Shown here: positions 6,687 through 42,678 of the stretch, in pieces | Layout: each line of letters starts with the position of its first letter | Numbering within the stretch: the stretch's first letter is position 1 | Origin: Deferribacterales bacterium | GTDB lineage: Bacteria > Chrysiogenota > Deferribacteres > Deferribacterales > Geovibrionaceae | Assembly (NCBI GenBank): GCA_050251945.1 | Contig: JBFWLW010000015.1 | Coordinates: 1-63,321 of the forward strand | Direction of reading: 5' to 3' | DNA: 63,321 bases | Position numbers and translations under genes: made by a program | The notes under the pieces: model-generated | Databases searched by the model: none | What the model saw: the letters and a program-made list of their open reading frames with translations, nothing else | Told to the model about the DNA's origin: nothing

Positions 6687-7664
6687 CTATATAAGCCTCT
6701 CTTTCAGTTCTTTTATCTTTGTTTCAAGGCTCGTCAGTTCGTCCATAACCTTCTGGCGGTCACGATATTTAAGATTGCGCTCCAGAAAGCTGTCAAACTG
6801 CTTAGTAATCGACTTGACTTTCTGATAGATCCGCACCTCTTTCGCAGGCTCGGTTTTGCGGGAGGCATCGCCCTCCCTTAACCGCAGAAGTAGCTTCTGC
6901 ATATCTTTCGTGTCAAGCAGTCCGTTTTCATATTTTGAGAAAATATCCGCCAGAGAGGGGTCATCCCTGTAGGGGAAGAAATCCTCCGCCATGCGGGGAC
7001 CTATTTTATTTGAAACTCTGATTATATCCAAAACACGGCCGGGATAAGCCAGCATTTTCAGATACTGAATCACAGAGCGAAGTGACACGCCCAGCTTCTC
7101 TGTCTCCTCCGTCAAATCATCGGATGACTGCGCCTCAATAGCACTTGATTTGTTTAACTCTGATATACACTTACTAAGTATGATTAAGTGCGGCACTTTT
7201 TCTTCGGCAGGAAACCACTGTGTTTTTAAAATTTCAGCAAATCCAACTGCCTTTTCAAAAGGGGTCAGATCTTCCCGCTGAATATTCTCAATTATCTGCG
7301 TAACAGCTATTTTTTTGGCGTCTGCAAAACGTTTGACCCGTGCCTTGATTCCGGTATGCCCGAGCAGTATAACAGCCCTGTAACGCCTTTCTCCCGCCAC
7401 CAGACGGTATTTTTTAATCACACCGCCTTCATGTATCTGTTCATCCTCTGAAAGCTCATGAAGAATGACCGGATTCAGAAGACCTTCGCTTTTTATACTT
7501 TTTGCAAGATTTTCAATGGATTCATCAGAAAATGTCGTTCTTATCTGCTCTTTAACGATGATTTCACTCAAAGGCACAACGGCATCCACAAATTCCTGAT
7601 TTGTAGCCTGCTGCATCTCGTCCCGCTGTTTTATCTTGCTTAAAAGATCGTTTCTTTTGCTCAT
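6687..7664 (-). CDS. parB: ParB-family partition protein
   Basis: GLLNPV, VAGERRYRA and ENIQREDL motifs. Confidence 0.92.
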   Translation of the reverse strand: MSKRNDLLSKIKQRDEMQQATNQEFVDAVVPLSEIIVKEQIRTTFSDESIENLAKSIKSEGLLNPVILHELSEDEQIHEGGVIKKYRLVAGERRYRAVILLGHTGIKARVKRFADAKKIAVTQIIENIQREDLTPFEKAVGFAEILKTQWFPAEEKVPHLIILSKCISELNKSSAIEAQSSDDLTEETEKLGVSLRSVIQYLKMLAYPGRVLDIIRVSNKIGPRMAEDFFPYRDDPSLADIFSKYENGLLDTKDMQKLLLRLREGDASRKTEPAKEVRIYQKVKSITKQFDSFLERNLKYRDRQKVMDELTSLETKIKELKERLI

Positions 7665-7667
7665 GGT

Positions 7668-8522
7668 CTATTCCTTCACCAATTTGGCTTCTATTCCGCT
7701 CAGAAGTGCTTCCATCTGAGTAACTGCATTTTTGTTTACTGAACCCCTCGATTTATAGTTAAGGATAAATTCCCGCTCGGCTATGGCGTTTTTATAGTCT
7801 GCGTAATAGGAGAGTATAGGCTCAACAACCATACCGGGAAACATCTCCTTGATATAATCTTTATATGCCAGATCAACTGAGTGGGTTGTTTTAAACTGGT
7901 TTATCACTATGCCCACAAGATTCAAATCCGGATTATCAGTTATTTTTATTTCATCATAGAGCTTAAGGGTGTTTTTTATTCCTTTGATGCTGAATTCGTC
8001 CGCGAGGGTAGGGATGATAAGGTTTTTTGCCGCAGAAAAGGCAGATTTAACAAGTGCCTTGCTGGAATCGGGGGGACAATCGAATATCACAACATCATAA
8101 ATATCAAACGCAAATGCCGCCAGAATAGACAGCAGAAATCTTGATGATGAAAATTCTTTTATTCTCAAATCAAGGTCGTTTATGGTCGGATCGGACGCTA
8201 TGACTGAAATATTGCCGCGCGTGAAAATTGAGTTTATCAGTTTTGTATTTAATTCATCGGTGGAAGCTTCGTCCTGTTTATACAGTTTGCTGAAATTATC
8301 CATTATAAATATCAGCAGATCTTTCAGTTTAACCTGTGAATCAGACCCCAGATCCCTCTGATCAGCTATGTATAGACATGAATTAAGCTGCTGGTGGTCG
8401 AGATCTATCAGCAATACTTTCCTGTCCAGTGATGCAAAGTATTCCGCAAGCTGGATGCTTATGAATGATTTACCCACGCCGCCCTTTGAAATCGAATTTA
8501 CTATTGAAATTTTGTCGCTCAT
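7668..8522 (-). CDS. parA: ParA-family Walker ATPase
   Basis: KGGVGKS, LLIDLD and IFDCPP motifs. Confidence 0.92.
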   Translation of the reverse strand: MSDKISIVNSISKGGVGKSFISIQLAEYFASLDRKVLLIDLDHQQLNSCLYIADQRDLGSDSQVKLKDLLIFIMDNFSKLYKQDEASTDELNTKLINSIFTRGNISVIASDPTINDLDLRIKEFSSSRFLLSILAAFAFDIYDVVIFDCPPDSSKALVKSAFSAAKNLIIPTLADEFSIKGIKNTLKLYDEIKITDNPDLNLVGIVINQFKTTHSVDLAYKDYIKEMFPGMVVEPILSYYADYKNAIAEREFILNYKSRGSVNKNAVTQMEALLSGIEAKLVKE

Positions 8523-10045
8523 ATCATGCCCTTACTGGTTTTTATAATCTGTTTATACACTGTTTCATAGTCCTTGTTGCTTTGGATCTGGCTGTCATAT
8601 TCCGTTATGAAGTTCTTTTTAATTTTTGAAACATATGATTTGCTCAGACCCGCAGCGTTTCCGATATCCACCTGTGAATATTCGTTATCTATTGTCAGCG
8701 CATATATAATTGCCCGCTTTATAAAAGTTATGGTCTCGTTCTGCGGTTTGTTTCCGAACACATCTTCAAACGAAAGATTCAGTTCTTTGCAGAATTTTTC
8801 CATGCGGCTTATAATTACGCTCATGGTATTATTATTGAATTTGTTAATAAAGCTGATTCCTGTGAGTTCCTGACAAAAACTGTTTATCCCGACAAAAGTT
8901 CCTTTATCGGTTATTTCATCGGCAAGGTCGTGTGCTTTGCCTTCCAGCTTGCGGAAATCGTCCGGCAGCTTGGTTACGGCGAGTTCCAGCATATTTATTT
9001 CTTCTTTGTTCAGGTTCGCAACGTCTATGTATCCTGTTTCAAGCAGCACTCTTTTGATAAATTTCATTTTTGCTTCAGGAGATGGGTAATCAACCGGAAT
9101 TATTCTGTTGCAGAGCCTTGATTCAAACTCTTTTTTCAGTTTTGCTTTTATTCTTGTTTCATCAATAGCCTGATAATCGAAAATTCTGTCGAAATCTTTC
9201 TTCGTGCATCTTTCATGTTCAAATACGAAGCTTAAATTTTCGGGGTTGTCGTGCATTGAATACAGGGTGATCTTTTTCTTTGATATCCGCAGATCCATCA
9301 GGTCATATAGAGCTATGAGGAAAAACATTGTCGTGGTGCTTAGAAAAATGGAAAGATCATCGAACATGACCAGATCAGCATCTGAAAGCTTATCAATAGT
9401 TTCGCTGTAATTCCGGTTTGAGGCAACTTTTTTAAAAAAGTTTTCCCAAAGGTTCTTCTTAAAATAATAAATCTGATAGCTTTGGTTTTTATCCATAAGG
9501 TGATTTATTATTGATTCCTGAAGGTGTGATTTCCCAAGCCCTCTGTCGCCGTAAATGCCTATGACTCCCTTTGTCGTCGTCTGTTTAAAATCGGTGTTCG
9601 CTATTTCAGACGCTATGTTAAAAGCTCTTCTGTTGCTGTCGTCCACTATGAAGTTGTCGAATGTATTTGAAATTGAAGTGCTTGATGGGTCATAGAAAAT
9701 CATATTTCTTTCATGTTTTGCGACATCTGTTTTCAGTGTTATCTTATGATTGAATTTGATTTTGTTTTTGAATTCCTTTGTGATAAGGTTTATAAAATTA
9801 GCTATGGTGTTGTCAAGTTTCAGACTTTCAAATATATACTTCTGGCTTGTGGTAAATTCTATGAGAACGTTGTCAATTTCATTTCTTGATGATCTGTTGA
9901 TTACCTCAATGGAGCAGTTAGCAAGAAACGCTCTGGTTTTGTTTGTAAAAGTTTCATACCTGCCTTCATTTTCGCAAATGTCCTGATAAAGGCTTTTTAT
10001 GAGATTTCTTACCTGTATTATGTTATATGTTGTTTCTGTTCCCAT
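8519..10045 (-). CDS. DnaA-like AAA+ protein, putative plasmid replication initiator
   Basis: TFDNFIVDDSNRRAF; Walker A GDRGLGKSHL; Walker B VMFDDL; sensor-2-like FRKLEG; C-terminal HTH lacking the DHTTV signature; 4-bp overlap with parA. Confidence 0.82.
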   Translation of the reverse strand: MGTETTYNIIQVRNLIKSLYQDICENEGRYETFTNKTRAFLANCSIEVINRSSRNEIDNVLIEFTTSQKYIFESLKLDNTIANFINLITKEFKNKIKFNHKITLKTDVAKHERNMIFYDPSSTSISNTFDNFIVDDSNRRAFNIASEIANTDFKQTTTKGVIGIYGDRGLGKSHLQESIINHLMDKNQSYQIYYFKKNLWENFFKKVASNRNYSETIDKLSDADLVMFDDLSIFLSTTTMFFLIALYDLMDLRISKKKITLYSMHDNPENLSFVFEHERCTKKDFDRIFDYQAIDETRIKAKLKKEFESRLCNRIIPVDYPSPEAKMKFIKRVLLETGYIDVANLNKEEINMLELAVTKLPDDFRKLEGKAHDLADEITDKGTFVGINSFCQELTGISFINKFNNNTMSVIISRMEKFCKELNLSFEDVFGNKPQNETITFIKRAIIYALTIDNEYSQVDIGNAAGLSKSYVSKIKKNFITEYDSQIQSNKDYETVYKQIIKTSKGMI

Positions 10046-10051
10046 ATTCAG

Positions 10052-10080
10052 ATGATAATATGCCGGAGAGGTTAAGTCAA
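10052..10080 (-). promoter_or_regulatory. sigma70 promoter of the dnaA-like/parAB operon (leaderless)
   Basis: TTGACT-17bp-TATCAT, then 6 nt to the ATG; no SD; the -35 lies inside a GTTGACTTAAC box. Confidence 0.65.
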
Positions 10081-10353
10081 CTTAGATTCAACTTTGGAAT
10101 GTTCAATTCTTAATATTAGTTTATAGATAAGTTATTATTATATGCTTCTTTGTGGATAAGTGGAAAACTATATACTAAACCTTTGTAAAAAAAGATTTAT
10201 TGTGTTTCCACAAAGTTGACTGGACGGTTGAATCAACTTCCACTCATGAGTTGACACACGTTGACTGGCGGTTGACTGAAAAGTTGTATCAACGCAGGTG
10301 ATGTACCTGTTGAGTCAACTCCGGTTGACTTGGAGTTGACTGAGGTTTGAATC
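10071..10353. other. Putative replication origin with AT-rich tract, DnaA box and iteron-like boxes
   Basis: AT-rich 10105-10145; TGTGGATAA at 10151-10159; GTTGA-type boxes at 10215, 10227, 10250, 10260, 10271, 10283, 10309, 10324, 10335 and inverted at 10071-10092. Confidence 0.7.
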
Positions 10354-10429
10354 CGGCAGAGTCTCCCTGTTTTGCACTGTAAGTCGCATATGCCTCGACA
10401 TCCCATGCAGAATATGTCATAATCTGGTT

Positions 10430-11047
10430 ATGGAACAGAACTTGCGGGAAACAATAGGGCAGGATATTTTTGATTATCAGATGCTGATGAACGCTTTGAA
10501 AGAATATGTCAGCCCGAGAGACAAAATCACAAGGCTGCTGAAATCAGGCGAAATTATCCAGCTCCGTAAAGGTCTGTATATTTTTCATCAGGCATACCGG
10601 AAGCAGTCTCTGTCCAGAGAAATCATAGCAAATATGATTTACGGTCCTTCATACATTTCATTTGAATACGCATTGAGTTATTACGGTATTATTCCTGAAA
10701 GGGTGAATGTTGTGACATCCGCCGCTTTGGGCAGAACCCGTTCCTATGACACCCCTCTGGGTGTATTCAGTTACAGGATGCTGCCTGCGGATGTTTTCAG
10801 CATCGGTGTTGACATCGTCGAATCATTCCATATCGCAACCCCTGCAAAGGCTCTGGCGGATAAAGTCGCATATGACAGCAACCTCGGTATAAGAACCGCT
10901 GCCGGCATGGCGGATTATTTGCAGGCGGGTCTGCGTGCTGATGTTTCCGATATTGATTTGTCAGAGTTGGCGGGAATAGGGCAGGCATACCGTATGACCA
11001 AGATTAAACTGCTGGAGGATGCCGTCAGGAGGATTAAGGATGAATAA
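10430..11047 (+). CDS. AbiEi-like type IV antitoxin / transcription regulator
   Basis: LRKGLY, PSYISFEYALSYYGIIPE and IATPAKALAD motifs. Confidence 0.85.
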   Translation: MEQNLRETIGQDIFDYQMLMNALKEYVSPRDKITRLLKSGEIIQLRKGLYIFHQAYRKQSLSREIIANMIYGPSYISFEYALSYYGIIPERVNVVTSAALGRTRSYDTPLGVFSYRMLPADVFSIGVDIVESFHIATPAKALADKVAYDSNLGIRTAAGMADYLQAGLRADVSDIDLSELAGIGQAYRMTKIKLLEDAVRRIKDE

Positions 11048-11903
11048 GGCTGTATTAAGGATGCTTGAAAAATATCAATGTGACACGGTGGACGCATATA
11101 TTCAGGCTCTCAGGGAGATTATGCAGGAAATTGCTCTGCTTGGTCTTTACAGAGGGAAGTTTTTTGAACATGCGGCGTTTTACGGCGGCACAGCACTTAG
11201 AATCATATACGGTCTTGAAAGATTTTCGGAAGATCTGGATTTTTCGCTTCTGAAACCCGATGACAGTTTCAGTCTGGATAAATACGGCGGTTACCTTGAA
11301 AAGGAGCTTGCCGCATATGGGTTTACTGTTTCAGTGGAACTCAAAAACAAAGCGGTTGAATCACAGGTTCAATCTGCATTTCTGAAAGCGGATACGGCAA
11401 ACGAGTTATTGGTTATTGAGGCAGGGGAGAGCCTTATAGGTCGGATTCCCCATGGTCAGAAGATCAAAATTAAAATTGAGGTGGACACTGACCCGCCGGC
11501 AGATTTTGACACGGAGATCAGATATCTGCTCAATCCGGTTCCATTCAGTGTGCGGGTGTACACTCTGCCGTGTCTGTTCGCCGGCAAGATGCACGCTCTG
11601 CTGTTCAGGCGGTGGGGGAAGAGGGTGAAAGGCCGTGACTGGTACGATCTTGTATGGTATCTGGCAAATCATCCTGAAATCAGCCTTGAACATCTGAAAG
11701 CGCGCATGGTTCAGACAGGCGACTGGCAGTCGGACAAACCTTTTTCAATGGACGACCTGCAATCTCTTTTCATGGATGCGGTTGATAAAACAGATATTGA
11801 ACAGGCAGGGAAAGAGGTTGCCCCTTTTCTTAAAAATCCTTCCGAAACCGCTGTCTGGTCAAAAGACTTCTTCAAAAGTATAGCTTCGGGATTTGTATCT
11901 TAA
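11040..11903 (+). CDS. AbiEii-family nucleotidyltransferase toxin
   Basis: FYGGTALR, RFSEDLDF, K.HA and KGRDWYDL motifs; overlaps the antitoxin gene. Confidence 0.9.
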   Translation: MNKAVLRMLEKYQCDTVDAYIQALREIMQEIALLGLYRGKFFEHAAFYGGTALRIIYGLERFSEDLDFSLLKPDDSFSLDKYGGYLEKELAAYGFTVSVELKNKAVESQVQSAFLKADTANELLVIEAGESLIGRIPHGQKIKIKIEVDTDPPADFDTEIRYLLNPVPFSVRVYTLPCLFAGKMHALLFRRWGKRVKGRDWYDLVWYLANHPEISLEHLKARMVQTGDWQSDKPFSMDDLQSLFMDAVDKTDIEQAGKEVAPFLKNPSETAVWSKDFFKSIASGFVS

Positions 11904-11954: not shown

Positions 11955-12110
11955 TGTTACATAAGTGTTACAGAATGTTCATGCAGTATGTAAGATTCGA
12001 GTGTAACACTTTTAAGTATTTCTATGATCAATCAGCAGTTCAAATCATTGTAGTATAAAATAATACTTCTCAACTCCCGTTTAATTTCTCTATTGGCACA
12101 TGCCTTGCAT
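11955..12110 (+). promoter_or_regulatory. sigma54 promoter with upstream activator sites for the porin-caiB operon
   Basis: TGGCAC-ATGCC-TTGCA at 12094-12109; TGTAACACTTT at 12002 and inverted AAGTGTTACA at 11963. Confidence 0.8.
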
Positions 12111-12141
12111 TTTAAGGGTCATTCTTTTTATGGAGGTTTTC

Positions 12142-13464
12142 ATGATCCGGAAAATGTTAGGAATTTTTCTCATTATAGTTTGTATGACAGGCGTATCTTA
12201 TGCCTACAAACTGTCTCTCAACGGTTACAATGAAACGGAACTTCGTTTCATTGGCAACAGCTCTGTCGGTGACGGCGGCAGCAATGTCGATAACGACAAT
12301 GGAACCTATGTGAAGCAGCAGCTTCGTATCTGGGGTTTCCTTGAGATGGACGAAAAGACCAAGCTGATCATGCGTATCACACCCATCAACCACAGATGGG
12401 GTACAAGCTATCAGCACAACACATCAGTTATCAAAGGTACTGCGATTCTTGACCGTGCGTGGGTTCAATATAAACCCGTGAATGATCTTACCATCGACTG
12501 CGGTTTTATGACTGCTGCTAACTATTCTATCAAAGGCTGGGCACAAGGCTGGTATAACGGCGGATTCACAGAATTCGGTCCCAGAAGCGGCGGCAGGGTT
12601 GAATATGCCAAAGACGGCAGAAAATACTGGATCCAGTATGAAAAGACCTATGAAACAGACGACAGTGATATGTTTTACGATGTGAATCATAATAAAGACT
12701 CTGATGCTGTTATCATCGGTACAGACACAGCCGACAATGGTCCTCTTAAAACACACGCCTATGCTGCATACTATTCAACATACGGCGGCGATACCGATAA
12801 TAATGACCGGTCCAGCCTCGGCGGCGGTTATGTAAGTGCTGAATATAAGATCAGCGAAAATCTTTCTACAACTCTTTCAGGTTCATACGTTGCAGGAAAA
12901 GCCTATGACTCCGGCGGCATATATATGAAAGGAGAAGGAGAGGACGTATCCGCATACGGTCTTTATGGCGACCTGGTTTTTAAAAATGATTCTTTCACTG
13001 CAGGTTTTGATGCAGAATATTCCAGCTATGACAAAGAAAAAGGTTTCTTCTCTCTCGGCGGTGACCTCGACAGAATGTATATCATGGATGACATCATGGG
13101 TGACTACAGAGGCGTTCCCGCTTCAACGTCATTCCGTGCATATGTAACAAAACCGGTCGGAAAATTTGAGGTTACGCCTGCCATCGCTTATTACATGAGT
13201 AATGTTAAAGACAGTGATGTTGCCATTACATACGGCAGCCCCTATAACGCCAAAAAAACATGGACAAAAGACACATCGGCTCTTGAACTTGATCTGAAAA
13301 CAACATATCAGGTCAGTCCTGTTATCAGCCTTGCAGGCGGTTATGCTGTTGCATTCATAGACAACGTATCTACAGGCTCAAAAGACAGCAACGGCAACTA
13401 TGAAACATACGATGCCGATCCTGTTCATGTGGCATGGTTCAGATTTACAGCTTCTTTTAAATAA
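12142..13464 (+). CDS. Outer-membrane beta-barrel porin (putative substrate channel)
   Basis: Signal peptide; Tyr/Gly/Asp-rich amphipathic strands; C-terminal WFRFTASF beta-signal; SD GGAGG before ATG 12142. Confidence 0.7.
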   Translation: MIRKMLGIFLIIVCMTGVSYAYKLSLNGYNETELRFIGNSSVGDGGSNVDNDNGTYVKQQLRIWGFLEMDEKTKLIMRITPINHRWGTSYQHNTSVIKGTAILDRAWVQYKPVNDLTIDCGFMTAANYSIKGWAQGWYNGGFTEFGPRSGGRVEYAKDGRKYWIQYEKTYETDDSDMFYDVNHNKDSDAVIIGTDTADNGPLKTHAYAAYYSTYGGDTDNNDRSSLGGGYVSAEYKISENLSTTLSGSYVAGKAYDSGGIYMKGEGEDVSAYGLYGDLVFKNDSFTAGFDAEYSSYDKEKGFFSLGGDLDRMYIMDDIMGDYRGVPASTSFRAYVTKPVGKFEVTPAIAYYMSNVKDSDVAITYGSPYNAKKTWTKDTSALELDLKTTYQVSPVISLAGGYAVAFIDNVSTGSKDSNGNYETYDADPVHVAWFRFTASFK

Positions 13465-13474
13465 TACTGTTTTC

Positions 13475-13512
13475 TCCCCGTCTTCGGGCGGGGGGGGGAA
13501 CACCTGTTTTTT
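13475..13512 (+). terminator. GC hairpin followed by a T-tract
   Basis: ctccccgtc-ttcg-ggcgggggg then tgtttttt. Confidence 0.55.
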
Positions 13513-13545
13513 GGGTTTAAAGTTTTTATTTAAAAGGAGATTATT

Positions 13546-14757
13546 ATGAAAAAAAGTGAAATGCCTGTATTCGGGAACCTTCAGGGAATTAAGGTTCTCA
13601 GTATTACCAGCGCGATTGCAGGTCCTTTTTGCGCAGGAATGTTTTCCGAACAGGGTGCAGACGTAATTCAGATTGAAAGCGTACTGTCTCCCGATATGCT
13701 TCGCAACTTTGGCGATACATGGTCTGATTTCCATAAGAACCAGAGGGCGATAACTCTTGACGTACCCAATCCCGAATCAAGACCTGTTCTGGAAAAACTT
13801 ATAAAATGGGCCGATATCCTTATAGAATCATCAAAAGGCGGCACATGGACAAAATGGGGTCTCACTGACGACTATCTCTGGAGCGTCAACCCCTCACTTG
13901 TTATCACACATATTTCAGGTTTCGGGCAGGAGGGCGACCCCGCATACGTTCCGAGAGCCTCTTTCGATATCGTCGGTCAGGCGTTCAGCGGCTATATGTC
14001 GATAAACGGTGAACCTGATCCCGCTCCGCCATATGCACCAAAACCTTTTCTTTGTGATTACACCACAGGTCTTTTTGCTGCGTTCGGCACACTTTCAGCT
14101 TATCACAGAGCAAAAGAGACAGGAAAGGGCGAGAGCATCGACCTTGCGCAGTTTGAGACCCTCGTGCGCATGCAGGGCAACTACATCATGGACGCCATAA
14201 ACAAAGGTTCCGAGTTCAAACGCATGGGCAATAAGGATATTATCGGAGCCACAGACGGTACTGAGGTTTGCAGGGACGGACGCTGGTATTACATTGCCGT
14301 TGGCGGTGCCGGTCCTGTGAAAAAACTGGAAAAGCTCCTTGGATTGGAAGGCGACCCTGATTTTGCAGAACCTCATTCAATCATTGCTCGTTCATTCCCC
14401 GAAAGGGCGGCGAAATTCAATAAAGCGCTCAAGGCGTTTTGTCTGCAACACACGCCGGAAGAGCTGGATGAAATATTCTCAAAACTCCAGATTCCGGCAA
14501 GTCCAATAATGACTTACAGGATGATGCTTGAAAACCCGCATTACAAAGCGCGCAGTGTGTTTACGGAGTGGCACGACCCTAACACTGAGAAACAGATCAA
14601 AGGACCTGCGCCCGTACCTAAATTTAAAAATAACCCAAGCAAAGTTTTCCGTGGAGGTCCTACATACGGACAGGACAACGAAGACGTTTTTACAGAGCTG
14701 GGGTTTGATGAAAGTTATGTGAAAAACTTATATGACAAAGGACTTACCAAAAAGTAA
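13546..14757 (+). CDS. Class III (CaiB/BaiF) CoA-transferase, CaiB-like
   Basis: MPVFGNLQGIKV..IAGPF...GADVIQIE, ISGFGQ, SFDIVGQAFSG and IDLAQFE motifs. Confidence 0.9.
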   Translation: MKKSEMPVFGNLQGIKVLSITSAIAGPFCAGMFSEQGADVIQIESVLSPDMLRNFGDTWSDFHKNQRAITLDVPNPESRPVLEKLIKWADILIESSKGGTWTKWGLTDDYLWSVNPSLVITHISGFGQEGDPAYVPRASFDIVGQAFSGYMSINGEPDPAPPYAPKPFLCDYTTGLFAAFGTLSAYHRAKETGKGESIDLAQFETLVRMQGNYIMDAINKGSEFKRMGNKDIIGATDGTEVCRDGRWYYIAVGGAGPVKKLEKLLGLEGDPDFAEPHSIIARSFPERAAKFNKALKAFCLQHTPEELDEIFSKLQIPASPIMTYRMMLENPHYKARSVFTEWHDPNTEKQIKGPAPVPKFKNNPSKVFRGGPTYGQDNEDVFTELGFDESYVKNLYDKGLTKK

Positions 14758-14765
14758 TTCCGGCG

Positions 14766-14794
14766 GCGGTCGGATTAAACCGACCGCTTTTTTT
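14766..14794 (+). terminator. Intrinsic terminator or attenuator after the CoA-transferase
   Basis: gcggtcgg..ccgaccgc followed by T7. Confidence 0.65.
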
Positions 14795-14829
14795 AAAATC
14801 CGCAGACAGGTTCCTGAGGTGAACCAGTT

Positions 14830-16092
14830 ATGAATAACACTAATAAAATGCATTATGCATGGTATATATTGTTTTGTGTATGTGCGATTTATGGTGCCGG
14901 AATAGGAATGATAGGCAACAGCGCCGGCTTGTTTCTGCTTGTTGTTTCTAAAGATATGGGCTGGCAAAGCGCCAGTCTGAATTTTTATCTGACTATCGTT
15001 CAGATAGTTATGATGGTGCTGCTGCCCTTCGCCGGCAGGTTATACACCAGAGTGAACGTCCGCATTATCCTTTCAGCAGGAATAACGCTGATGGCCGTGG
15101 CATATGTCGGCAGTGCTTTTACTCATTATCTCTGGCAGTGGTATGTGATAGGTGTTCTTTTAGGTATCGCTTACGCTTTCATTCTTTACCTTCCCGGACC
15201 GTTGCTTATCAACAACTGGTTCGACAAGCGCGCCGGGCTTGCTCTTGGCATAAGCATGGCGTTTGCCAGCATCACTGCCGCAGTGGTCAACCCTCTCGGG
15301 GGTTGGATCATAGACCAGTACGGATGGCGCATGGCGAGGATCCTTATTGGTTCGAGCGCATGGTTGCTGGCTATTCCTTTCTGTCTTTTTGTCGCCAAGT
15401 ATAAACCCGAAGACCTTGGTCTTAAACCCTACGGGTATGACAATTTCAAAAAGGCGGGTGCCGTTTCCGTTATCAAAGGTGTTTTTTACAAAGACGCACT
15501 GAAAAATCCTGCTTTCTATCTTACTTTCTGCCTTGCCGGAATCATAGTGTTCTGCGCAACGATGCACATGATGACACCAAGCTATGCGAACTCTATAGGG
15601 CTTTCATCGGCGACGGGTGCGACCGCCGTTTCCGTTATCATGATAGGCGGAGTCGTTGGCAAATTCTTTCTCGGCTGGCTTGTTGACAGGATAGGTGCCA
15701 GAAACACCACATTTTTCGCGATGCTTCTTGGAGCAATGGGAGCCGCAGTCGTTTTAATTGGCAATACGAATGTAACCGTTTTTTTTACCGGGGCGTTTAT
15801 GTTCGGTTTCAGTTACGCGGCTCTGACAATTGTCCCTCCTCTTGTAGTGCGGGCCGTTTACGGCCCGCTTGATTACGAAAAGATATATTCAAGCGTAACG
15901 ATAGCTTTTGGTCTTTTCGGGGCATCGGCACCGCTGGTTTACGGGCATATCTATGACGTAACGAAAAGCTACAGAGGTGCGTGGGGATTTGTTCTGGGTT
16001 TTTACCTGATAGCGTTCTTTTTAACGATTTTCATTTTCATGTTCAGCAAAAAACTTACATGGAAGGAGAAGATCGTGACTTCAAATAATTAA
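14830..16092 (+). CDS. MFS transporter (OFA/monocarboxylate-like)
   Basis: About 12 TM; NWFDKRAGLALG, YGWR and GWLVDRIG motifs. Confidence 0.88.
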   Translation: MNNTNKMHYAWYILFCVCAIYGAGIGMIGNSAGLFLLVVSKDMGWQSASLNFYLTIVQIVMMVLLPFAGRLYTRVNVRIILSAGITLMAVAYVGSAFTHYLWQWYVIGVLLGIAYAFILYLPGPLLINNWFDKRAGLALGISMAFASITAAVVNPLGGWIIDQYGWRMARILIGSSAWLLAIPFCLFVAKYKPEDLGLKPYGYDNFKKAGAVSVIKGVFYKDALKNPAFYLTFCLAGIIVFCATMHMMTPSYANSIGLSSATGATAVSVIMIGGVVGKFFLGWLVDRIGARNTTFFAMLLGAMGAAVVLIGNTNVTVFFTGAFMFGFSYAALTIVPPLVVRAVYGPLDYEKIYSSVTIAFGLFGASAPLVYGHIYDVTKSYRGAWGFVLGFYLIAFFLTIFIFMFSKKLTWKEKIVTSNN

Positions 16093-16108
16093 TTATAAGA
16101 GGTTTTTT

Positions 16109-17359
16109 ATGACTAACACAAAAAGTGGCGGTATTCATTACGCATGGTGGATCATGGTCGCATGCTGTGCCATGTACGGTGGTGCAGTTGGTGTCATTGG
16201 CAACACCATGGGACTTTTCCTGAACCCTGTAATGGAAGAGATGGAGTGGACACGTCTTCAGGCTTCCTATTATATGTCCATCAGCGGTATCGTTCTTGCG
16301 ATCTGCCAGCCTATCGCCGGCAAACTGTTCTCAAAAATTGATATCCGCATCCTTCTCGGCTGCGCAGTGGGCGTGCTTTGCCTTTCCTATGCGGCGTCCT
16401 CTCAGTTTCATTCCCTCGCGGCTTGGAACGCTTTCGGCATTATCATAGGTGTATGTAACGCATTCCTGTTTTATCTGCCGATCCCGATACTTATGAACAG
16501 CTGGTTTAAAGACCGCCTTGGTCTTGCGCTGGGTATTGCAGTTGCATTCTCAAGTATTACTGCGGCTTTTGCAAACCCCATAGGTAACATGCTTATCGCT
16601 GAGTACGGCTGGAGAACAACCAGGCTCATCTTTGGCGGTATCGTGTTCGTGGCTGTAATGCCTTTTATGCTCTTTGTTGTGAGAAGAACTCCCGAAGAGA
16701 AAGGGCTTAAACCTTATGGCGTGGAAAAAATGTCTGCACAGCAGGTGGCAGCGGCAGCTGGTGAAGCAACCGGAGCAACTTTCAAACAGGCTCTTATGTC
16801 CGTTTCGTTCTGGTGTTATTTCCTGATGGCATGTCTCATCGTCACCTGTGCGTCAATGCACGTTCAGACCCCCGGTTATGCGGCATGGAAAGGACTTGGT
16901 TCTCAGATAGGTGCAACTGCTGTTTCCGTTATCATGATAGGCGGTATATCCGGCAAGATATTCCTTGGCTGGCTTAACGACAAAATAGGAATTGTCAAAA
17001 CAGGTATGTTTGCAATGGTTCTGGGTATTATAGGCAGTGTTATTGCGGTTGTGTCAAACATGAACGTCACTCTGTTCTTTGTGGGAACATTTATGTTCGG
17101 TGTGGCATACGCTGCGCTCACTATCGTCCCTCCTCTGCTGGTGCGTTCAGCATTCGGCATGAAAAGTTATTCCCAGATATTTTCCATCATAACTTTCGGG
17201 CTGGGTATATTCGGCGGAACCGTTGCTCCAATGCTTTATGCTAAACTTTACGACGCTCATAAATCATTTGCGATCCACTGGCCTCTGGTTGCGGGAATGT
17301 TCGCCGCGGCGCTTGTGCTTCTGATAATCGGAAACGCAACAAGTAAAAAGGCTTACTAG
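16109..17359 (+). CDS. MFS transporter, paralogue of the upstream gene
   Basis: HYAW, SWFKDRLGLALG, ATAVSVIMIGG and YAALTIVPPL shared with 14830-16092. Confidence 0.88.
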   Translation: MTNTKSGGIHYAWWIMVACCAMYGGAVGVIGNTMGLFLNPVMEEMEWTRLQASYYMSISGIVLAICQPIAGKLFSKIDIRILLGCAVGVLCLSYAASSQFHSLAAWNAFGIIIGVCNAFLFYLPIPILMNSWFKDRLGLALGIAVAFSSITAAFANPIGNMLIAEYGWRTTRLIFGGIVFVAVMPFMLFVVRRTPEEKGLKPYGVEKMSAQQVAAAAGEATGATFKQALMSVSFWCYFLMACLIVTCASMHVQTPGYAAWKGLGSQIGATAVSVIMIGGISGKIFLGWLNDKIGIVKTGMFAMVLGIIGSVIAVVSNMNVTLFFVGTFMFGVAYAALTIVPPLLVRSAFGMKSYSQIFSIITFGLGIFGGTVAPMLYAKLYDAHKSFAIHWPLVAGMFAAALVLLIIGNATSKKAY

Positions 17360-17368
17360 TAATAGTTT

Positions 17369-17404
17369 ATGCACAGGTTTCCGGTTTTGCCGGAACCTGT
17401 GCAT
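17369..17404. terminator. Long stem-loop between the MFS and the ligase
   Basis: atgcacaggtt(t)ccgg...ccggaacctgtgcat inverted repeat; no clear T-tract. Confidence 0.4.
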
Positions 17405-17466
17405 CTTAAAGACGCAACCCCGCACAGGCAGCAGCCGATGCCGCGGGAAAATCTATTACTGACGGG

Positions 17467-19032
17467 ATGAACATAATGATTAACATGGGATATTTTCTTA
17501 TTAACAGTGCAAATATACACCCGTTTAAAACAGCCCTTGTTCACGGAGAGCGCCGTATAAGCTTTTTAGAGCTTAATACCCGTGCATGTAAACTTGCAAA
17601 CGGTCTGCGGAAGCTGGGGGTGAAAAAAGGCGACAGGATTGCGTATGTCTTTCCGAACTGCATTGAACTGGTGGAAACATATTTTGCCATACAAAAACTT
17701 GGTGCTGTGGCGGTCCCTCTTAATCACAGGCTGGTGCACACTGAGATTAATCTGCTTTTGGAATCTGCCGGTTGTTCCGTACTTTTCTTTAATGAAAAAT
17801 ACAGAGATATCGCTCTGCGCGAAGGAGGGAAACCCACGAAGGGGTTGAAACATGCGATATGTATAACAGAGAACCTGTTGGGACAGGACGTTTCATATGA
17901 AGCTCTTCTGTCTTCCGGCGAGTATTCTGAACCTGATGCCGGCATTTTGCCAGAGGATATCTGCCGCATACAGTTCACAGGCGGAACCACTGGTATCCCG
18001 AAAGGTGTTGAACATTCCCATGAACAGGATGTTCTCACAATGCTGTCGCTGTTGGTGCAGACCAAAATAGGTACAGTTCCGGAAGAAGTTGTGATGGCAC
18101 AAAGCCCCATGAACCATCACGGCGGATACACGTGGGTGATGTGTGCCATGGCTGCCGGATGCACGTATGTTATGCAGGATAAGTTCGATTCGTGCCGCAT
18201 ACTGGAAGCTATCGAAAAGGAAAAGGTTTCGTACCTTCTTCTGCTTCCGCCGACAAGTTATCTGAGGCTTATTAACGACCCATGCATGAAAAACTATGAC
18301 GTTTCATCCGTTAAGGTGGTTCAGACATCGGCAGGCGGAACGTCAAAAGAGATAGCACAGAAGATTTTTAAGGCTTTCATTAATTGCGAAATGCACTACG
18401 GATGGGCTCAAACGGAATCTGGTGTCGGTACCAAGCTGATACTGACCAGAGACATGAACCCCGAAGACACTATATTTAAAAGTGTCGGCAGACCCGCGGC
18501 CCTTGCCGAGCTTAAGATTGTTGACGACGAAGGCAGAGAGGTGCCTGATGGAACTGTGGGCGAATGTTTGTTCAGAGGTCCTACAATGATGACAGGATAT
18601 TACGGTCAGCCGGAGCTTACTGCCGATGTACAACGTGGCGGGTGGCTTCATACTGGCGATCTGTTTTACAGAGAGAACGGATTCTATTACATGGTGGGCA
18701 GAAAAAAGGACATGATAAAAAGCGGCGGCGAGAATGTTTTCGCTTCCGATGTCGAAAAAGTGCTTCTGAGCAATCCTTTTGTTGAAGAGTGCGCTGTTGT
18801 CGGTGTTCCGGATGAACAGTGGGGAGAGGCAATCGCCGCCATTATAAAACCCGCGGAAGGCTGCAAACCGACATTCGATGATATCATATCATATTGCAGG
18901 TGCAGTATGGCGGGTTACATAAAACCTAAGTACATCCGTTTTGTTAACGAACCTCTTGCGGATGGTGCTGGGAAAATTCAAAAATCAAAGCTTATGGAGA
19001 AATATAAAATGCTCCACATTTCGGAGGAATAG
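17467..19032 (+). CDS. Acyl-CoA synthetase (AMP-forming)
   Basis: FTGGTTGIPKG, GWAQTE, HTGDL and GRKKDMIKSGGENV motifs. Confidence 0.92.
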   Translation: MNIMINMGYFLINSANIHPFKTALVHGERRISFLELNTRACKLANGLRKLGVKKGDRIAYVFPNCIELVETYFAIQKLGAVAVPLNHRLVHTEINLLLESAGCSVLFFNEKYRDIALREGGKPTKGLKHAICITENLLGQDVSYEALLSSGEYSEPDAGILPEDICRIQFTGGTTGIPKGVEHSHEQDVLTMLSLLVQTKIGTVPEEVVMAQSPMNHHGGYTWVMCAMAAGCTYVMQDKFDSCRILEAIEKEKVSYLLLLPPTSYLRLINDPCMKNYDVSSVKVVQTSAGGTSKEIAQKIFKAFINCEMHYGWAQTESGVGTKLILTRDMNPEDTIFKSVGRPAALAELKIVDDEGREVPDGTVGECLFRGPTMMTGYYGQPELTADVQRGGWLHTGDLFYRENGFYYMVGRKKDMIKSGGENVFASDVEKVLLSNPFVEECAVVGVPDEQWGEAIAAIIKPAEGCKPTFDDIISYCRCSMAGYIKPKYIRFVNEPLADGAGKIQKSKLMEKYKMLHISEE

Positions 19033-19034
19033 AA

Positions 19035-19805
19035 ATGAAAAACATACTGAACGACCTTATAGCCGAGCAGTCGCTGGTTGATAACCTTGTTTCCGGTCTG
19101 GCAGATGAACAGTGGCTTAAGCCGGTTCCCGGGACCGGAACATGGACAATAAGGGAAACGATAGTTCATATCGCTTTCTTTGATTATGCGGCAAAGAAAC
19201 TCATGACTGGAGAGGCTGAGGATCTTATGGTGATATCCAAGGAGGCGGGGCAGGACGAGTATTACAGGTCACATGCATATGACGGCATGTCGGGAGCCGA
19301 CGCGCTGCGCTGGTGGCGCGAGGAACGAACCCGTATGACCGCTCTGTTTTTTGACAAAGACCCGAAAGACAGGATACCATGGGCGCCGGGATTGCCTATG
19401 TCCGCCCGGTCGCTTGCTTCCGCGAGACTAATGGAACTCTGGGCTCACTCTGTTGATATTTACGATTCTCTGGGTCTTGATCCCGTTGTTGAGGACCGGA
19501 TTGCTCATACGCTTTTCCTCTCATGGCAGGCAAGAGCCAATGCATACAGAATAAACGGATTTGAACTTCCGGAAACGCCTCTTTATTTGGAACTGACTTT
19601 ACCGGGGGGTGGAATATGGGAAAAAGGTGACCCTGCCGCTGAAAACTGCATCAAGGGAACGGCAAAAGACTGGGCTCTCGTATCCATACGCAGAAGGAAT
19701 TGGCACAATACGGGACTTAAAATTTCAGGCAGTGAAGCTGAAAGATATGCAAATGTTGTGCAGACCTACGCAGGACGGGCAGACAAAGCCCCTGAAACAA
19801 AATAA
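19035..19805 (+). CDS. DinB/MDMPI-superfamily metal-binding protein (TIGR03084-like)
   Basis: WTIRETIVHIAFFD and ARLMELWAHSVDI motifs; C-terminal LELTLPGG..W domain. Confidence 0.75.
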   Translation: MKNILNDLIAEQSLVDNLVSGLADEQWLKPVPGTGTWTIRETIVHIAFFDYAAKKLMTGEAEDLMVISKEAGQDEYYRSHAYDGMSGADALRWWREERTRMTALFFDKDPKDRIPWAPGLPMSARSLASARLMELWAHSVDIYDSLGLDPVVEDRIAHTLFLSWQARANAYRINGFELPETPLYLELTLPGGGIWEKGDPAAENCIKGTAKDWALVSIRRRNWHNTGLKISGSEAERYANVVQTYAGRADKAPETK

Positions 19806-20125
19806 ATGTAGTATGAATTAAACAAAAAAGGGTCTGCGCTTTTGTTGCCGGATCCCAAATCGGGGTGTATAATATCGAAAACATATGTATCAAAATATGT
19901 GATTCGAGGCATTGGTTACTGGCTGTTTCCAAACCGAACACCACGATGAACATCTATATTTATCAAAAAAGTTTTACTGTCCCTATGCATTAATTCGGCT
20001 TTATGAACAGATGGACTCAAAATATTAACTTTTAGTTAATTAAATTTAGCGGCAATGCAATTTATGGCTTAAGCCTCATCAATCTAACGAACTTGATATG
20101 ATACCACGTCATAGGGGGTGACTAG

Positions 20126-22048
20126 ATGAATAGCGGACAAGAGAACGTTGTTGCTGCATGGAAAACATTTATCACGGAACATACCGTTCCGAAAGGGCTG
20201 GTCAGACCGGAGGTCATGAGATCGTGGCAGAGATGTTACGAATCCGGTCTTGACCCGTGGTCTTCAAGTTTTCCAATGGGTTCAATGCAGGAACTGGAAA
20301 TACGCACAAAGCAGAATCAGGATCTGCTGAACGTTGCATATCCTATTATGCAGCTTCTTTTTACAGCTCTTAATATTAATATTTCCATCTGCGATAAAGA
20401 CGGGTTTGTATTTAAACTGATATCCCCTCTGGATCATTATCCGAGAACGCTCGGTTCCTTTGTCAGGGAATCGTCCAACGGCAACGGCGCAATTACGATA
20501 GCCCTTCAGGAGAAGATAGCGACAAGGCTCGACGGTTTTGAACACTACAGGGCGATATCCCATGCCTGTTCCGATGCAAGCGCGCCGCTTATAAAAAACG
20601 GCGCTCTGGTGGGCGTTATAAACGGTGTCAGTCTTTTCGGACCGCTTCCGGATATAACGCTGGATATGCTGAAAAGCGGAGCGGAACTCATAGAGGGGAT
20701 GCTTGAATATGAAACTCAGCACAAAACCACTCTGGAACTTATCCATGACAAAGAGCTGAAAAAACTCTTTGCCGGGTTTATAGACCTGTCCAGTGACGTA
20801 GTTATAATAGCGAAACTGGACGGCTATGTGAAATACGCCAATAAAGCGGCGAGAGATTACATAGAAAATATTTTCAGCGGATTAAACATCACCGATCTTT
20901 TTGACAACATAGGCGATGCTCTGCATCTTCTTGACAACGAAGAAAATCCTGTGCAGACGTATAGGCTTCTTAACGGTAAGATGGTCAAACTGCTTAGAAG
21001 AGGGCTTATCAGGATTGAGGAATGTATGTCGTACATGCTGGTATTCGACCAGAACGTTGACACGAGCACTGTTAAGGCAAAAGACTCACCTTCGTGTTCT
21101 TATCCTTATGACCTTTATATCGGTGAAAGCGAAGCATGGGACAATGTTGACGAGATGGTGCACAGGGTCGCAGGGTTCTCATCAAACGTGATGATATTCG
21201 GTGAAACGGGAACAGGCAAAGAAGTGGTTGCAAAGGCGATACACAAACTTAGCGGCCGCAAGGGGAACTTTGTTGCCATAAACTGCGGAAACGTTCCCAA
21301 GGAACTGCTTTGCAGTGAGTTTTTCGGATATGAGAGGGGCGCCTTCACTGGTGCCAGAGCAGAGGGTTCCATTGGTAAGTTCGAGTATGCCAACAAAGGC
21401 ACTCTGCTTCTGGATGAGATAAGCGAAATGCCGTTGGATATGCAGGTCAGCCTGCTTCGGTTCATTCAGGAGCGTGCTGTTACCAAGATAAATTCCAATA
21501 CGACCAAAAAGGTTGATGTGCGCATTATCGCGGCGACAAACAAAAACATCAGAGAACTTGTGAACAAGGGGCTTTTCAGAGAGGATCTTTATTACAGGCT
21601 GGCAGTGATAGAGATAGACCTGCCGCTTCTGAGCGAAAGAGAAAACGATGTCGTACTTCTGGCTGAATATTTCATTCAGGAGCTTTCGCTGCAGCTTTCC
21701 ATTCCCGTCAAGGCTTTAAGCGAAAATGCCAGAGAAATGCTTCGCAGGCATAAATGGCACGGGAACGTCAGGGAACTGAGAAACTATATCGAAAAGCTTA
21801 TGATATTGACCATCGGCAGCGAGATAACTTCCGATGTTTTGAAAAAATACGGGATAAACTGTGCATATGAGCCGCCTGTCAACAATTTCATTGAGAGGAA
21901 CTCAAAGCTCGACGTTATCAAGGTATGCCTTGAAAAGCATCAGGGCAATATCGCCAAGACCGCCAAAGAACTTGGTATTGCACGAAACACATTATACCGG
22001 AAAATCGAAAAATATAATATTCAGCTCAAAACATCCATAGTCCGGTAG
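20126..22048 (+). CDS. sigma54 enhancer-binding activator, AcoR-like (GAF-PAS-AAA+-Fis)
   Basis: VMRSWQRC N-terminus; GETGTGKE; GAFTGA; FREDLYYRL; GNVREL; HTH LGIARNTLYRKI. Confidence 0.93.
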   Translation: MNSGQENVVAAWKTFITEHTVPKGLVRPEVMRSWQRCYESGLDPWSSSFPMGSMQELEIRTKQNQDLLNVAYPIMQLLFTALNINISICDKDGFVFKLISPLDHYPRTLGSFVRESSNGNGAITIALQEKIATRLDGFEHYRAISHACSDASAPLIKNGALVGVINGVSLFGPLPDITLDMLKSGAELIEGMLEYETQHKTTLELIHDKELKKLFAGFIDLSSDVVIIAKLDGYVKYANKAARDYIENIFSGLNITDLFDNIGDALHLLDNEENPVQTYRLLNGKMVKLLRRGLIRIEECMSYMLVFDQNVDTSTVKAKDSPSCSYPYDLYIGESEAWDNVDEMVHRVAGFSSNVMIFGETGTGKEVVAKAIHKLSGRKGNFVAINCGNVPKELLCSEFFGYERGAFTGARAEGSIGKFEYANKGTLLLDEISEMPLDMQVSLLRFIQERAVTKINSNTTKKVDVRIIAATNKNIRELVNKGLFREDLYYRLAVIEIDLPLLSERENDVVLLAEYFIQELSLQLSIPVKALSENAREMLRRHKWHGNVRELRNYIEKLMILTIGSEITSDVLKKYGINCAYEPPVNNFIERNSKLDVIKVCLEKHQGNIAKTAKELGIARNTLYRKIEKYNIQLKTSIVR

Positions 22049-22118
22049 CAGTTTTTTTTTATCTTCTTCAAAGGTCGTCAGGAGTTGTCCTCGCGACCTT
22101 TTTTAAAGCCTTTTTTCA

Positions 22119-22258
22119 CTGAACACTCCTGAACACTTTTTTTTGAAATGTAACACTTTGCTCTGTTTTACTTTGATCACACTGTGATGTGTTTACAGGA
22201 TAAAATTCTTTATTATTAATTATTTGTTTAGTTGATATTTTTTGGCACTCCTTTCGCT
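22119..22258 (+). promoter_or_regulatory. sigma54 promoter with upstream activator sites for the OYE-fixX operon
   Basis: TGGCAC-TCCTT-TCGC at 22243-22257; TGTAACACTTT at 22149; ctgaacact repeats at 22119 and 22129. Confidence 0.75.
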
Positions 22259-22284
22259 TTAATAAAGGACATAAGGAGAGTCTT

Positions 22285-24339: not shown

Positions 24340-24341
24340 CT

Positions 24342-25100
24342 ATGGCAACAGTTTACACCAGAAAAGACGGATGCATCGGCTACGTCGTACTTAACAAGGC
24401 GGAACGCAGAAACGCCATAGATCCCGATATGATGGACGTTATGACAGACTGTTTCAACAGTCTGGAAGCGGACACTGATGTTAAGGTCGTGATACTCAGC
24501 GCAGAGGGCGACCACTTCTGTTCCGGTGGCGACCTGAAAGCCGCCCCCGGCGGTCATACCATCGAAAGCTCACACCATGCCCTGCGCAAATACGGCAAAA
24601 CCGTAATGACCATACAAAACATGGAGAAACCGGTCATCGCCGCAGTGAAGGGCTATGCGGTCGGCGGAGGTATGAGTCTTGCGCTTGCATGTGACATAAT
24701 CTTTGCTGCAGAAAGCGCAAAATTCAGCTGTAACTTTCTGAAGGTAGGCATCTGTCCGGAAATGGGCGCTATGATGTTCATGCCCCAGCTCATTGGTATG
24801 CAGAGATCAAAGGAACTCTGGTACACCGGACGAATTGTTTCTGGTGAAGAGGCATATGTCATGGGCTTTGTCAACAAAGTGGTTCCCGATCCGGAGCTTG
24901 AAAAAGAGACGCTGGGATTCGCAAACGGTATAGCGACCGTGCCTTCAATGTCACTCGCCATTACAAAGCGCATAGCAAATTCGACATATCACAGAGACCT
25001 TGTGAACATACTGGATACTGAAACGCTCAGTACCCCCTTTTGCAGTCAGACAAAAGAACATAAGGCTCTTGTTGAAGCCTTTTTGAACAGGAAAAAGTAA
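24342..25100 (+). CDS. Enoyl-CoA hydratase/isomerase
   Basis: FCSGGDL and KPVIAAVKGYAVGGGMSLALACD motifs. Confidence 0.92.
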   Translation: MATVYTRKDGCIGYVVLNKAERRNAIDPDMMDVMTDCFNSLEADTDVKVVILSAEGDHFCSGGDLKAAPGGHTIESSHHALRKYGKTVMTIQNMEKPVIAAVKGYAVGGGMSLALACDIIFAAESAKFSCNFLKVGICPEMGAMMFMPQLIGMQRSKELWYTGRIVSGEEAYVMGFVNKVVPDPELEKETLGFANGIATVPSMSLAITKRIANSTYHRDLVNILDTETLSTPFCSQTKEHKALVEAFLNRKK

Positions 25101-25197
25101 TTCTGATACGGCAGGACTCCACGGTGGTAAAACACCGGGGAGAGCCTCCCCTGCCGTCAGTACAAAGCGTTTTTTTAATAACTCAGGAGAGACAGAT

Positions 25198-26352: not shown

Positions 26353-26433
26353 AGCTTAAACAGATGGCGGAAGAGTTTTTTGCTTTTCCGCCGCATAAAC
26401 TGAACTCACAAACGAAAGGATATCGGAAATACC

Positions 26434-27405: not shown

Positions 27406-27432
27406 GAAAATCAGGTTTATTAGGAGATAATT

Positions 27433-28194: not shown

Positions 28195-28204
28195 GGAGTC
28201 TGAA

Positions 28205-29110: not shown

Positions 29111-29170
29111 TGTCCTCATTTCAGCGGCACGGGACGCAACACCCGTGCCGCCCCCAATTCAGAGGTTATT

Positions 29171-30463: not shown

Positions 30464-30479
30464 TTTGGCAGGAGGACAT

Positions 30480-34479: not shown

Positions 34480-34489
34480 GAAGCCCCCC

Positions 34490-35230: not shown

Positions 35231-35261
35231 AGGAACCTCCATTAGTGATAATGGAGAATAA

Positions 35262-35364
35262 CGCAATAGACGTGCCAATGAAGGGTGTGCTAAGTTTTTG
35301 ATAAACGGTGGCGGAGGCAGAAGTGTTGTAAGGTTTCTTTACGGTTTGCGTAAAGATTATTTAC
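35262..35364 (-). promoter_or_regulatory. sigma54 promoter plus tandem palindromic activator sites
   Basis: Minus strand TGGCAC-GTCTA-TTGC (35277-35263); GTAA-N7-TTAC at 35328-35342 and 35350-35364. Confidence 0.8.
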
Positions 35365-42668: not shown

Positions 42669-42678
42669 GGAGTAATCA

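Follow-up and report, generated by a model that had tools for sequence, protein, structure and literature searches.

A plasmid-borne second DnaA with a replaced recognition helix and an adjacent repeat array as the probable initiator of a Deferribacterales plasmid

The stretch of DNA analysed here (the window, 63,321 bp) is contig C15 of a 26-contig, 3.07-Mb Deferribacterales genome, and encodes a 508-residue paralogue of the chromosomal replication initiator DnaA (protein P0001) that is followed by the partition genes parA and parB and preceded by a repeat-rich spacer at 10046-10429. The paralogy with DnaA, the intact ATP site, the changed domain IV, an insertion, the fixed parAB cassette and the adjacent phased array are all observed, and P0001 is a member of a distinct family of full-length DnaA paralogues, apparently not described before, in which the recognition helix has been replaced. 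We consider it likely that P0001 is the replication initiator of a low-copy plasmid, representing an undescribed initiator family, with a private oriC in the spacer; if this function holds, the element would be a new type among plasmid replicons.

A closed circle without another recognisable Rep

Structurally, the window molecule is a closed circle of 62,808 bp: the ends of C15 overlap by 513 bp with six differences, alone among the 26 contigs, and in contigs of two sequencing runs exactly the 3'-end version of these six letters continues directly into the sequence from position 514, an assembly check and no independent occurrence, as these runs may be the source of the window DNA. Named relatives and cargo in common with genomes of its family place the host in Deferribacterota. 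The canonical host dnaA, with a GGRDHST helix, lies on a separate contig (C6:35881-37215), and the host dnaN (C3:270715-271806) lies apart from it; by eye, and unlike in the host, a dnaN-like open reading frame (ORF) directly follows dnaA in loci L007 and L009. An earlier note on this DNA, made from the letters alone, had pointed to the lack of dnaN and gyrB around the paralogue, which is correct but of no diagnostic value, since host dnaA and dnaN also sit on different contigs. None of the circle's 56 main ORFs, and none of 16 additional ones that are small or alternative, matched a Rep family, dnaN or gyrB, so that the note's failure to recognise another Rep extends to all 72; the three long ORFs without a Pfam match start with signal-peptide-like stretches (by eye). 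No tRNA was found on the circle, and an Rfam scan of it returned 0 matches.

P0001 is a full-length DnaA paralogue

The DnaA motifs singled out by the earlier note are all located in ORF 8519-10045, namely TFDNF..SN (residues 128-138), GDRGLGKSHL (166-175), FDDL (228-231) and FRKLEG (364-369), with the helix-turn-helix SQVDIGNAAGLSKSYVSK at 457-474. As references for chromosomal DnaA we used TIGR00362 and the structures of Bacillus subtilis (8btg), Aquifex aeolicus (1l8q/3r8f) and Escherichia coli domain IV (1j1v). Against TIGR00362 itself P0001 scores 73 bits, far under the cut-off of 343.9, and the eleven best Foldseek matches of its AlphaFold model (built from 19 sequences; mean predicted local distance difference test score, pLDDT, 87) are all DnaA structures. 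Domain III superposes on B. subtilis 8bv3_A with a VIA-align Z of 21.9 (root-mean-square deviation, rmsd, 3.1; 234 aligned), and the scores for DnaC (16.2), Hda (15.9) and IstB (15.4) are lower. Domain IV matches that of DnaA by hhalign profile comparison (probability 98.3, E 1.5e-14; reversed control 0.17), with GLSKSYVSK of P0001 paired with GGRDHSTVLH of DnaA, one residue shorter, and residues 409-508 superpose on the DnaA DNA-binding domains 3pvp_A (Z 12.1, rmsd 2.7, 95 aligned) and 1j1v_A (Z 11.6, rmsd 2.4, 92 aligned). P0001 is thus a DnaA paralogue, with domains III and IV established by both profile and fold.

The N-terminal domain is probably DnaA domain I. Its model, of low confidence (pLDDT 61), reaches Z 5.2 against domain I of 4tps_D (82 aligned, rmsd 3.3), a score equalled by unrelated KH-II folds; hhalign gives a weak match to DnaA domain I (E 0.022), the family profile aligns with Thermotoga maritima DnaA starting at residue 23, and Foldseek with domain I alone returned no match at E 0.001. 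Domain boundaries and the features of the spacer are collected in Table 1.

Table 1. Features of the cassette and of the upstream spacer, in window coordinates.
Feature	Position	Strand	Details
DnaA paralogue P0001, proposed plasmid initiator	8519..10045	-	508 aa; Bac_DnaA E 7.5e-15
N-terminal domain, aa 1-105, KH-type-II fold	9731..10045	-	position fits DnaA domain I
AAA+ domain III, aa 120-396	8858..9688	-	K172, D229, D230, Arg finger R310 and sensor II R365 kept
Family-specific insertion, about aa 270-300, sensor I to Arg finger	9146..9238	-	three short strands in the model
Domain IV, aa 409-508, with replaced helix-turn-helix S457-K474 (window 8624-8677)	8522..8821	-	
parA	7668..8522	-	AAA_31 E 8e-24; best PLSDB match pCALNI01 ParA
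parB	6687..7664	-	ParB_N E 9.9e-17; GERRY motif; two best PLSDB matches pCALNI01 and pDF308 ParB
Two repeat copies 11 bp apart over a sigma-70-like promoter	10074..10093	-	-35 at 10080-10075, -10 ending at 10052
AT-rich stretch, candidate unwinding element	10095..10150	.	15-20% GC
Tandem canonical DnaA boxes, 8-bp offset	10151..10167	-	TTTTCCACT, then TTATCCACA
DnaA-box-like site GTTTCCACA	10204..10212	+	back to back with the last array copy
Distal array, 11 copies of the TCAAC 9-mer	10214..10342	.	both orientations, many 10-12 bp apart

A separate family with an invariant ATP site and a replaced helix

A six-sequence profile searched against 1.84 billion representatives gave 13,872 matches at E 0.001; among the 150 matches listed, 17 aligned in one near-full-length stretch and, with P0001 and P0002, make up alignment A4, a family of at least 19 sequences with 16-76% identity to P0001. 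A profile search with these 19 sequences found no further members, and P0021 as query brought in the close relatives P0179 and P0180, which stand outside the 19. Members were compared with 152 other DnaA (listed matches of 380-620 aa, three earlier matches and 26 from Deferribacterota), one multi-domain match being left out and P0014 swapped for its cluster mate P0177. Despite about 20% identity, the Walker A lysine, both Walker B aspartates, the Arg finger and the sensor II arginine are invariant (19/19). The roughly 30-residue insertion before the Arg finger that the earlier note had described measures 29 aa against host DnaA; it is 20-39 aa long in all 19 members as against -1 to +5 in all 152 other DnaA, a count that is partly circular because members were chosen by unbroken alignment. 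The GGRDHTTV signature that the note had found absent from the C-terminal helix-turn-helix is lacking throughout the family (DH[ST][TS] in 0 of 19), and the position of the DnaA-box-reading histidine holds K or R in 15 of the 19 members, as against H in 141 of the 152 others.

Phylogenetically, the 19 members form one group with support of 100 in a tree from columns filled in 70% of rows, a choice that should drop the insertion, and of 83 on the AAA core alone; with the replaced helix, this supports the note's suggestion of a possibly separate family. The family groups with DnaA against phage loaders at 99. In a free rooted tree it is sister to all sampled DnaA; nesting with Deferribacterota DnaA was not rejected (p 0.46; in a second test p 0.56, with higher likelihood), and a control grouping that should have failed also escaped rejection (p 0.60); the trees therefore do not place the family. 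For the derivation from chromosomal DnaA put forward in the note, these trees settle neither direction nor donor. Phage loaders were also tried as relatives and rejected: viral contigs gave AAA-domain matches only (38 loci, none full length), and three single-protein scans gave nothing.

Some sequences near the family deserve mention in their own right. Member P0020 is fused to an RnlA/HEPN-like C-terminal domain, the cluster mate of one member bears the label Methanomicrobium, and a 3.5-kb contig (L003) of a genome labelled Marinimicrobia, probably mis-binned, carries a near-identical initiator gene, spacer and AbiE pair. The ESM Atlas cluster nearest to P0001, whose 62 members measure about 503 aa, come most often from Bdellovibrionota and have Bac_DnaA_C in no more than 50% of cases, could be a wider branch of the family or another divergent DnaA family.

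The paralogue lies with parA and parB at all four loci of known context

The initiator gene overlaps parA by 4 bp (ATGA), as the note had observed, and the overlap is kept in L029, a metagenome contig whose initiator is 76% identical to P0001 and which resembles the window solely across the cassette. Initiator, parA and parB lie in this order on one strand, with a repeat array upstream and unrelated cargo, at all four loci of known context: the circle, L029 and the complete plasmids pCALNI01 (58.7 kb) and pDF308 (308.5 kb). In the homologue search proposed in the note, the two plasmids were the only carriers among 72,556 PLSDB records; databases label their proteins only 'DnaA/Hda family protein'. 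Across 68 genomes of the phylum the paralogue occurs in three, each time as a second copy beside a normal dnaA and on a separate contig, and near-full-length ParB matches occur only in these three. The cassette proteins of two survey contigs (G006:C2 and G014:C2) have the same coordinates as those of the public pCALNI01 and pDF308 records, and each pair was counted once. On pCALNI01, neither the annotation nor a scan covering 34 ORFs revealed another Rep; MOB-suite assigns the plasmid a rep_cluster_200, which could denote the paralogue or another ORF.

The upstream spacer is the probable origin

The coordinates given in the note, 6687..10045, leave out the probable origin of the circle, the 384-bp spacer at 10046-10429. 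This spacer holds 13 copies of a DnaA-box-like 9-mer with the core TCAAC, mostly 10-12 bp apart, a density that is the highest among 31,934 genome windows of 384 bp (next best elsewhere 7, mean 1.0); AGTCAAC occurs seven times in it, where the best of any 7-mer in 1000 shuffles was five. The distal part of the array contains three GTT(G/A)W-N-WYAAC palindromes. Over 40 bp, the AT-rich stretch has the lowest GC content of the spacer both here and in L029, and it is among the circle's lowest-GC 100-bp windows. TTATCCACA is the only perfect canonical DnaA box on the circle. The two proximal repeat copies are candidates for autoregulation, the underlying promoter call being a consensus match only (5 promoter-like sites vs 2.0 in shuffles).

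Comparatively, L029, with the helix VTKSYVSK for LSKSYVSK, keeps the TCAAC core in 12 copies (spacings 11, 10, 23 and 12), and a 17-bp block at the DnaA-box-like site is identical in both. Because L029 carries two TCAAC-type boxes, with the same 8-bp offset, exactly at the aligned positions of the window's canonical boxes, the comparison suggests that this family reads a variant form of the DnaA box. In pCALNI01 and pDF308 the helices differ and the repeats differ too: of the 11 copies of AAACTAAC on pCALNI01, 8 lie in its spacer at intervals of 11-12 bp, a count that 5 of 1000 shuffles reached, and of the 59 copies of ATGCAAT on pDF308, 18 lie in the spacer there (10 of 1000 shuffles).

The candidate origin adjoins an AbiEi/AbiEii type IV toxin-antitoxin pair (10430-11903) that is absent there in L029, and upstream of the L029 array lies a short remnant (L029:7377-7637) with a faint UvrD_C_2 match (E 0.085), perhaps a relaxase-helicase tail.

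Resemblance to known systems

P0001 and its spacer resemble DnaA at oriC in a domain order that is probably I-II-III-IV, the AAA+ fold, the ATP-contact residues, the domain IV fold and the adjacent 9-mer array with an AT-rich stretch. Unlike chromosomal DnaA, the paralogue lies on a plasmid in one operon with parAB, falls far under the TIGR00362 cut-off, carries a 20-39-aa insertion, has its DnaA-trio pocket residues replaced and its own repeat for the DnaA box, and shows a recognition helix and basic loop that are replaced and variable between members. It lacks the R.DH[ST]T DnaA-box signature, and it is no sole chromosomal initiator, the host having a separate canonical dnaA.

'DnaA-like' replicases of types I and II are reportedly known from Rhodobacterales (Petersen, 2011), and the earlier note had set the paralogue beside them, which proved a false lead. 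Like them, the paralogue would be a plasmid initiator next to parAB, and the name is shared; the Rhodobacterales proteins differ in being 218-226 aa long, with an N-terminal helix-turn-helix and a C-terminal DnaA_N match, no AAA+ domain and an orientation divergent from parAB, and no homology to the paralogue family is detectable (hhalign probability 0.2). Hda, DnaC/DnaI and IstB share the initiator-clade AAA+ domain and differ in having no DnaA domain IV and lower fold scores. Archaeal Orc1/Cdc6 paralogues have their own origins on secondary replicons. By analogy, they may be the closest precedent in logic, in that a cellular AAA+ initiator has been duplicated and paired with a private origin next to it, and differ in belonging to another domain of life and in their winged-helix binding domain; a literature search found no bacterial DnaA counterpart of such pairs.

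The papers cited by accession or identifier from here on are represented by parts of their text, to which statements about them apply. Iteron plasmids (RK2 TrfA, F RepE, R6K) and Vibrio cholerae RctB share phased repeats, an AT-rich tract, helper DnaA boxes and a rep gene beside type I par, whereas their initiators are winged-helix proteins (PMC10797057, PMC6090056) and the paralogue is an AAA+ DnaA with sites of about 9 bp. The 35 initiator hidden Markov models of OriV-Finder (Table S2) include DnaA_N and not Bac_DnaA (PMC12230664); against them P0001 matched only RNA_helicase, at 17.2 bits and below the cut-off of 21.5, and it matched none of the plasmid-initiator NCBIfam entries on the OriV-Finder list. 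By term search, DnaA and AAA go unmentioned in the main text of a 2026 plasmid-initiator phylogeny (10.1101/2024.09.03.610885), as does dnaA in the pDF308 genome paper (PMC2885270). No description of the paralogue family was found in a literature search that covered few subscription papers, and the accessible portions of PMC9025767, PMC8287927, PMC10797057, PMC6090056, PMC2791219, PMC11858219, PMC12839544, PMC4403523, 10.1101/2025.07.03.662523 and 10.64898/2026.08.31.748271 held no precedent. The paralogue thus resembles DnaA at oriC, yet belongs neither to chromosomal DnaA nor to any plasmid initiator family tested; at the level of sequence, neither another Rep on this circle nor nesting in a characterised replicase family, the findings that the note had named as fatal to its proposal, was encountered.

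Proposed mechanism and alternatives

Mechanistically, array binding, oligomer formation, DNA opening and replication by the paralogue are what we would predict from these sequences. Domain IV would bind the TCAAC 9-mer, which can be aligned to the DnaA box with TC..AC in common and C replaced by A at position 6, so that plasmid and chromosome would not compete. Copies one helical turn apart could then seed the head-to-tail assembly of ATP-bound subunits via R310 and R365, and the adjacent AT-rich stretch would melt via a changed single-strand surface, possibly including the insertion, or with host DnaA at the canonical boxes; we propose another melting route because the DnaA-trio pocket is not kept. 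As the circle encodes no helicase, domain I may recruit that of the host, and binding over the promoter might limit the rep-parA-parB operon.

Several findings weigh against an initiator with a private origin. Across the family, the residues by which B. subtilis DnaA captures the DnaA-trio (PMC10721633), namely E183, N187, I190, I193, R202, K222 and E228, have for the most part been replaced; only the equivalent of N187 is kept in P0001 (mapped via host DnaA, with the helix register possibly off by one), and the sensor I aspartate and box VII arginine are likewise mostly replaced. An orientation-independent skew test misses the array, on the circle (z 1.0, rank 24 of 201) as on pCALNI01 (z 0.2, rank 88 of 201). 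On pDF308 the skew origin falls near 0-2 kb (z 7.7; cassette 3.0), about 75 kb from the cassette, and two other genes are annotated as replication initiation proteins; the pDF308 cassette may be a secondary or silent replicon. Co-variation of helix and repeat rests on three independent types, among which ParB differs too, and context is known for 4 of the 19 members; some of the other 15 lie on contigs of 48-182 kb. Finally, a search of the window for chromosomal-type parS with up to three mismatches and for ACTTC-N7-GAAGT pairs found neither, and the array is the only parS candidate found there, so that ParB may own some of the array repeats, although pDF308 and pCALNI01 each have a separate ACTTC-N7-GAAGT palindrome pair, a possible parS. 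Replication skew was rejected as support: the whole-sequence GC-skew minimum lies 0.8-2 kb from the array on the circle and pCALNI01, but we count it as gene orientation only, because third-position skew is opposite and the four-fold-site test flat. In favour of the array, gene orientation on pCALNI01 switches there (rank 3 of 588).

Functionally, host DnaA could instead fire through the canonical boxes, as on a minichromosome, with the paralogue as a regulator or co-factor that binds the array and thereby controls the parAB operon or copy number or gates host DnaA. The perfect and weak tandem boxes followed by an AT-rich stretch do resemble the basal unwinding system of PMC8287927, the paralogue's single-strand pocket is changed, and pDF308 seems to fire elsewhere yet keeps an intact cassette. 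We nevertheless hold this explanation to be unlikely, as L029 has family boxes at the canonical positions and only one relaxed DnaA box, the pCALNI01 spacer has no exact TTWTNCACA and only two one-mismatch sites, the Arg finger and sensor II are invariant in all 19 members, and plasmid Reps are commonly assisted by host DnaA boxes (PMC10797057).

Most array copies are short direct repeats with helical spacing, beside an AT-rich tract and DnaA boxes, and pDF308 carries two copies of a perfect 17-bp palindrome away from its array, one within parB and one shortly behind it. Both observations make it quite improbable that the array is a partition centromere bound by ParB or ParA, with the paralogue acting elsewhere or serving partition rather than replication, although the spacer holds four 11-bp palindromes, the circle offers no other parS candidate and repeats over par operon promoters are common. 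Least probable of all, and only a slight chance in our view, is that P0001 is a helicase loader or transposition-helper ATPase of the DnaC/IstB type, on an element that replicates otherwise or on an excised, non-replicating island. Profile searches that hit DnaC/IstB families, a 274-aa serine recombinase (36996-37820) that has a resolvase domain but just the first half of a recombinase domain, and the presence of cargo blocks in large contigs of relatives (9.4 kb at 84% in one of six same-genus genomes, 18.6 kb at about 71% in one of 15 family genomes) speak for it. P0001, however, has a DnaA domain IV, a domain III closer in fold to DnaA (Z 21.9) than to DnaC, Hda or IstB, and a place with DnaA against phage loaders in the tree; no helicase or IS21 transposase adjoins it, and two complete plasmids carry the cassette.

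Regarding pDF308, some further genes may be recorded. A Rep3_C-like gene (L001:3888-4556) faces the same spacer as the cassette, and a perfect chromosomal-type parS palindrome lies just past it (L001, record 232630). The other annotated 'replication initiation protein' (L109:11907-13721, 604 aa) has no Pfam match. The plasmid also encodes a DNA polymerase, a DnaB-like helicase and a ribonucleotide reductase (L110 and L115 among the loci), and no obvious initiator adjoins its skew origin near 0-2 kb.

Implications

Reviews view DnaA as the chromosome initiator and as a mere helper at plasmid origins (PMC10797057), and all studied chromids are said to fit a plasmid origin (PMC6090056). If the paralogue is an initiator, there would be a second route to an independent replicon, in which the initiator is duplicated and its box changed. 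With three distinct natural combinations of helix and box to date, the family offers material for learning how domain IV reads DNA, and would test the need for the DnaA-trio mechanism in AAA+ origin opening; since two carriers are cultured strains with complete plasmids, direct testing is possible. It could also be developed into a vector for Deferribacterota and account for plasmids left untyped by current Rep lists. More broadly, and tentatively, we posit a class of plasmid replicons that each run on a private four-domain DnaA and a private oriC, with helix and box differing from pair to pair, as a bacterial counterpart of the archaeal Orc1/Cdc6-origin pairs. Such a class might represent an ancient lineage alongside all chromosomal DnaA, might extend past Deferribacterota, and might open DNA with another single-strand surface in which the inserted hairpin takes part.

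Cargo of the circle

The 18.6-kb cargo block (12100-30755) comprises a porin-like gene, a coenzyme A (CoA) transferase, major facilitator superfamily transporters, an acyl-CoA ligase, a sigma-54 activator, and beta-oxidation and electron transfer flavoprotein/FixABCX genes; it is syntenic with its counterpart in G026:C3 and was not found at E 1e-20 in the 14 other family genomes. Two paralogous operons in opposite orientation (41226-47679 and 48561-57189) each encode an outer-membrane-like protein, a small cytochrome, a molybdopterin oxidoreductase, an Fe-S subunit and a chaperone, and with a third oxidoreductase at 31366-35278 the plasmid is rich in anaerobic respiration genes.

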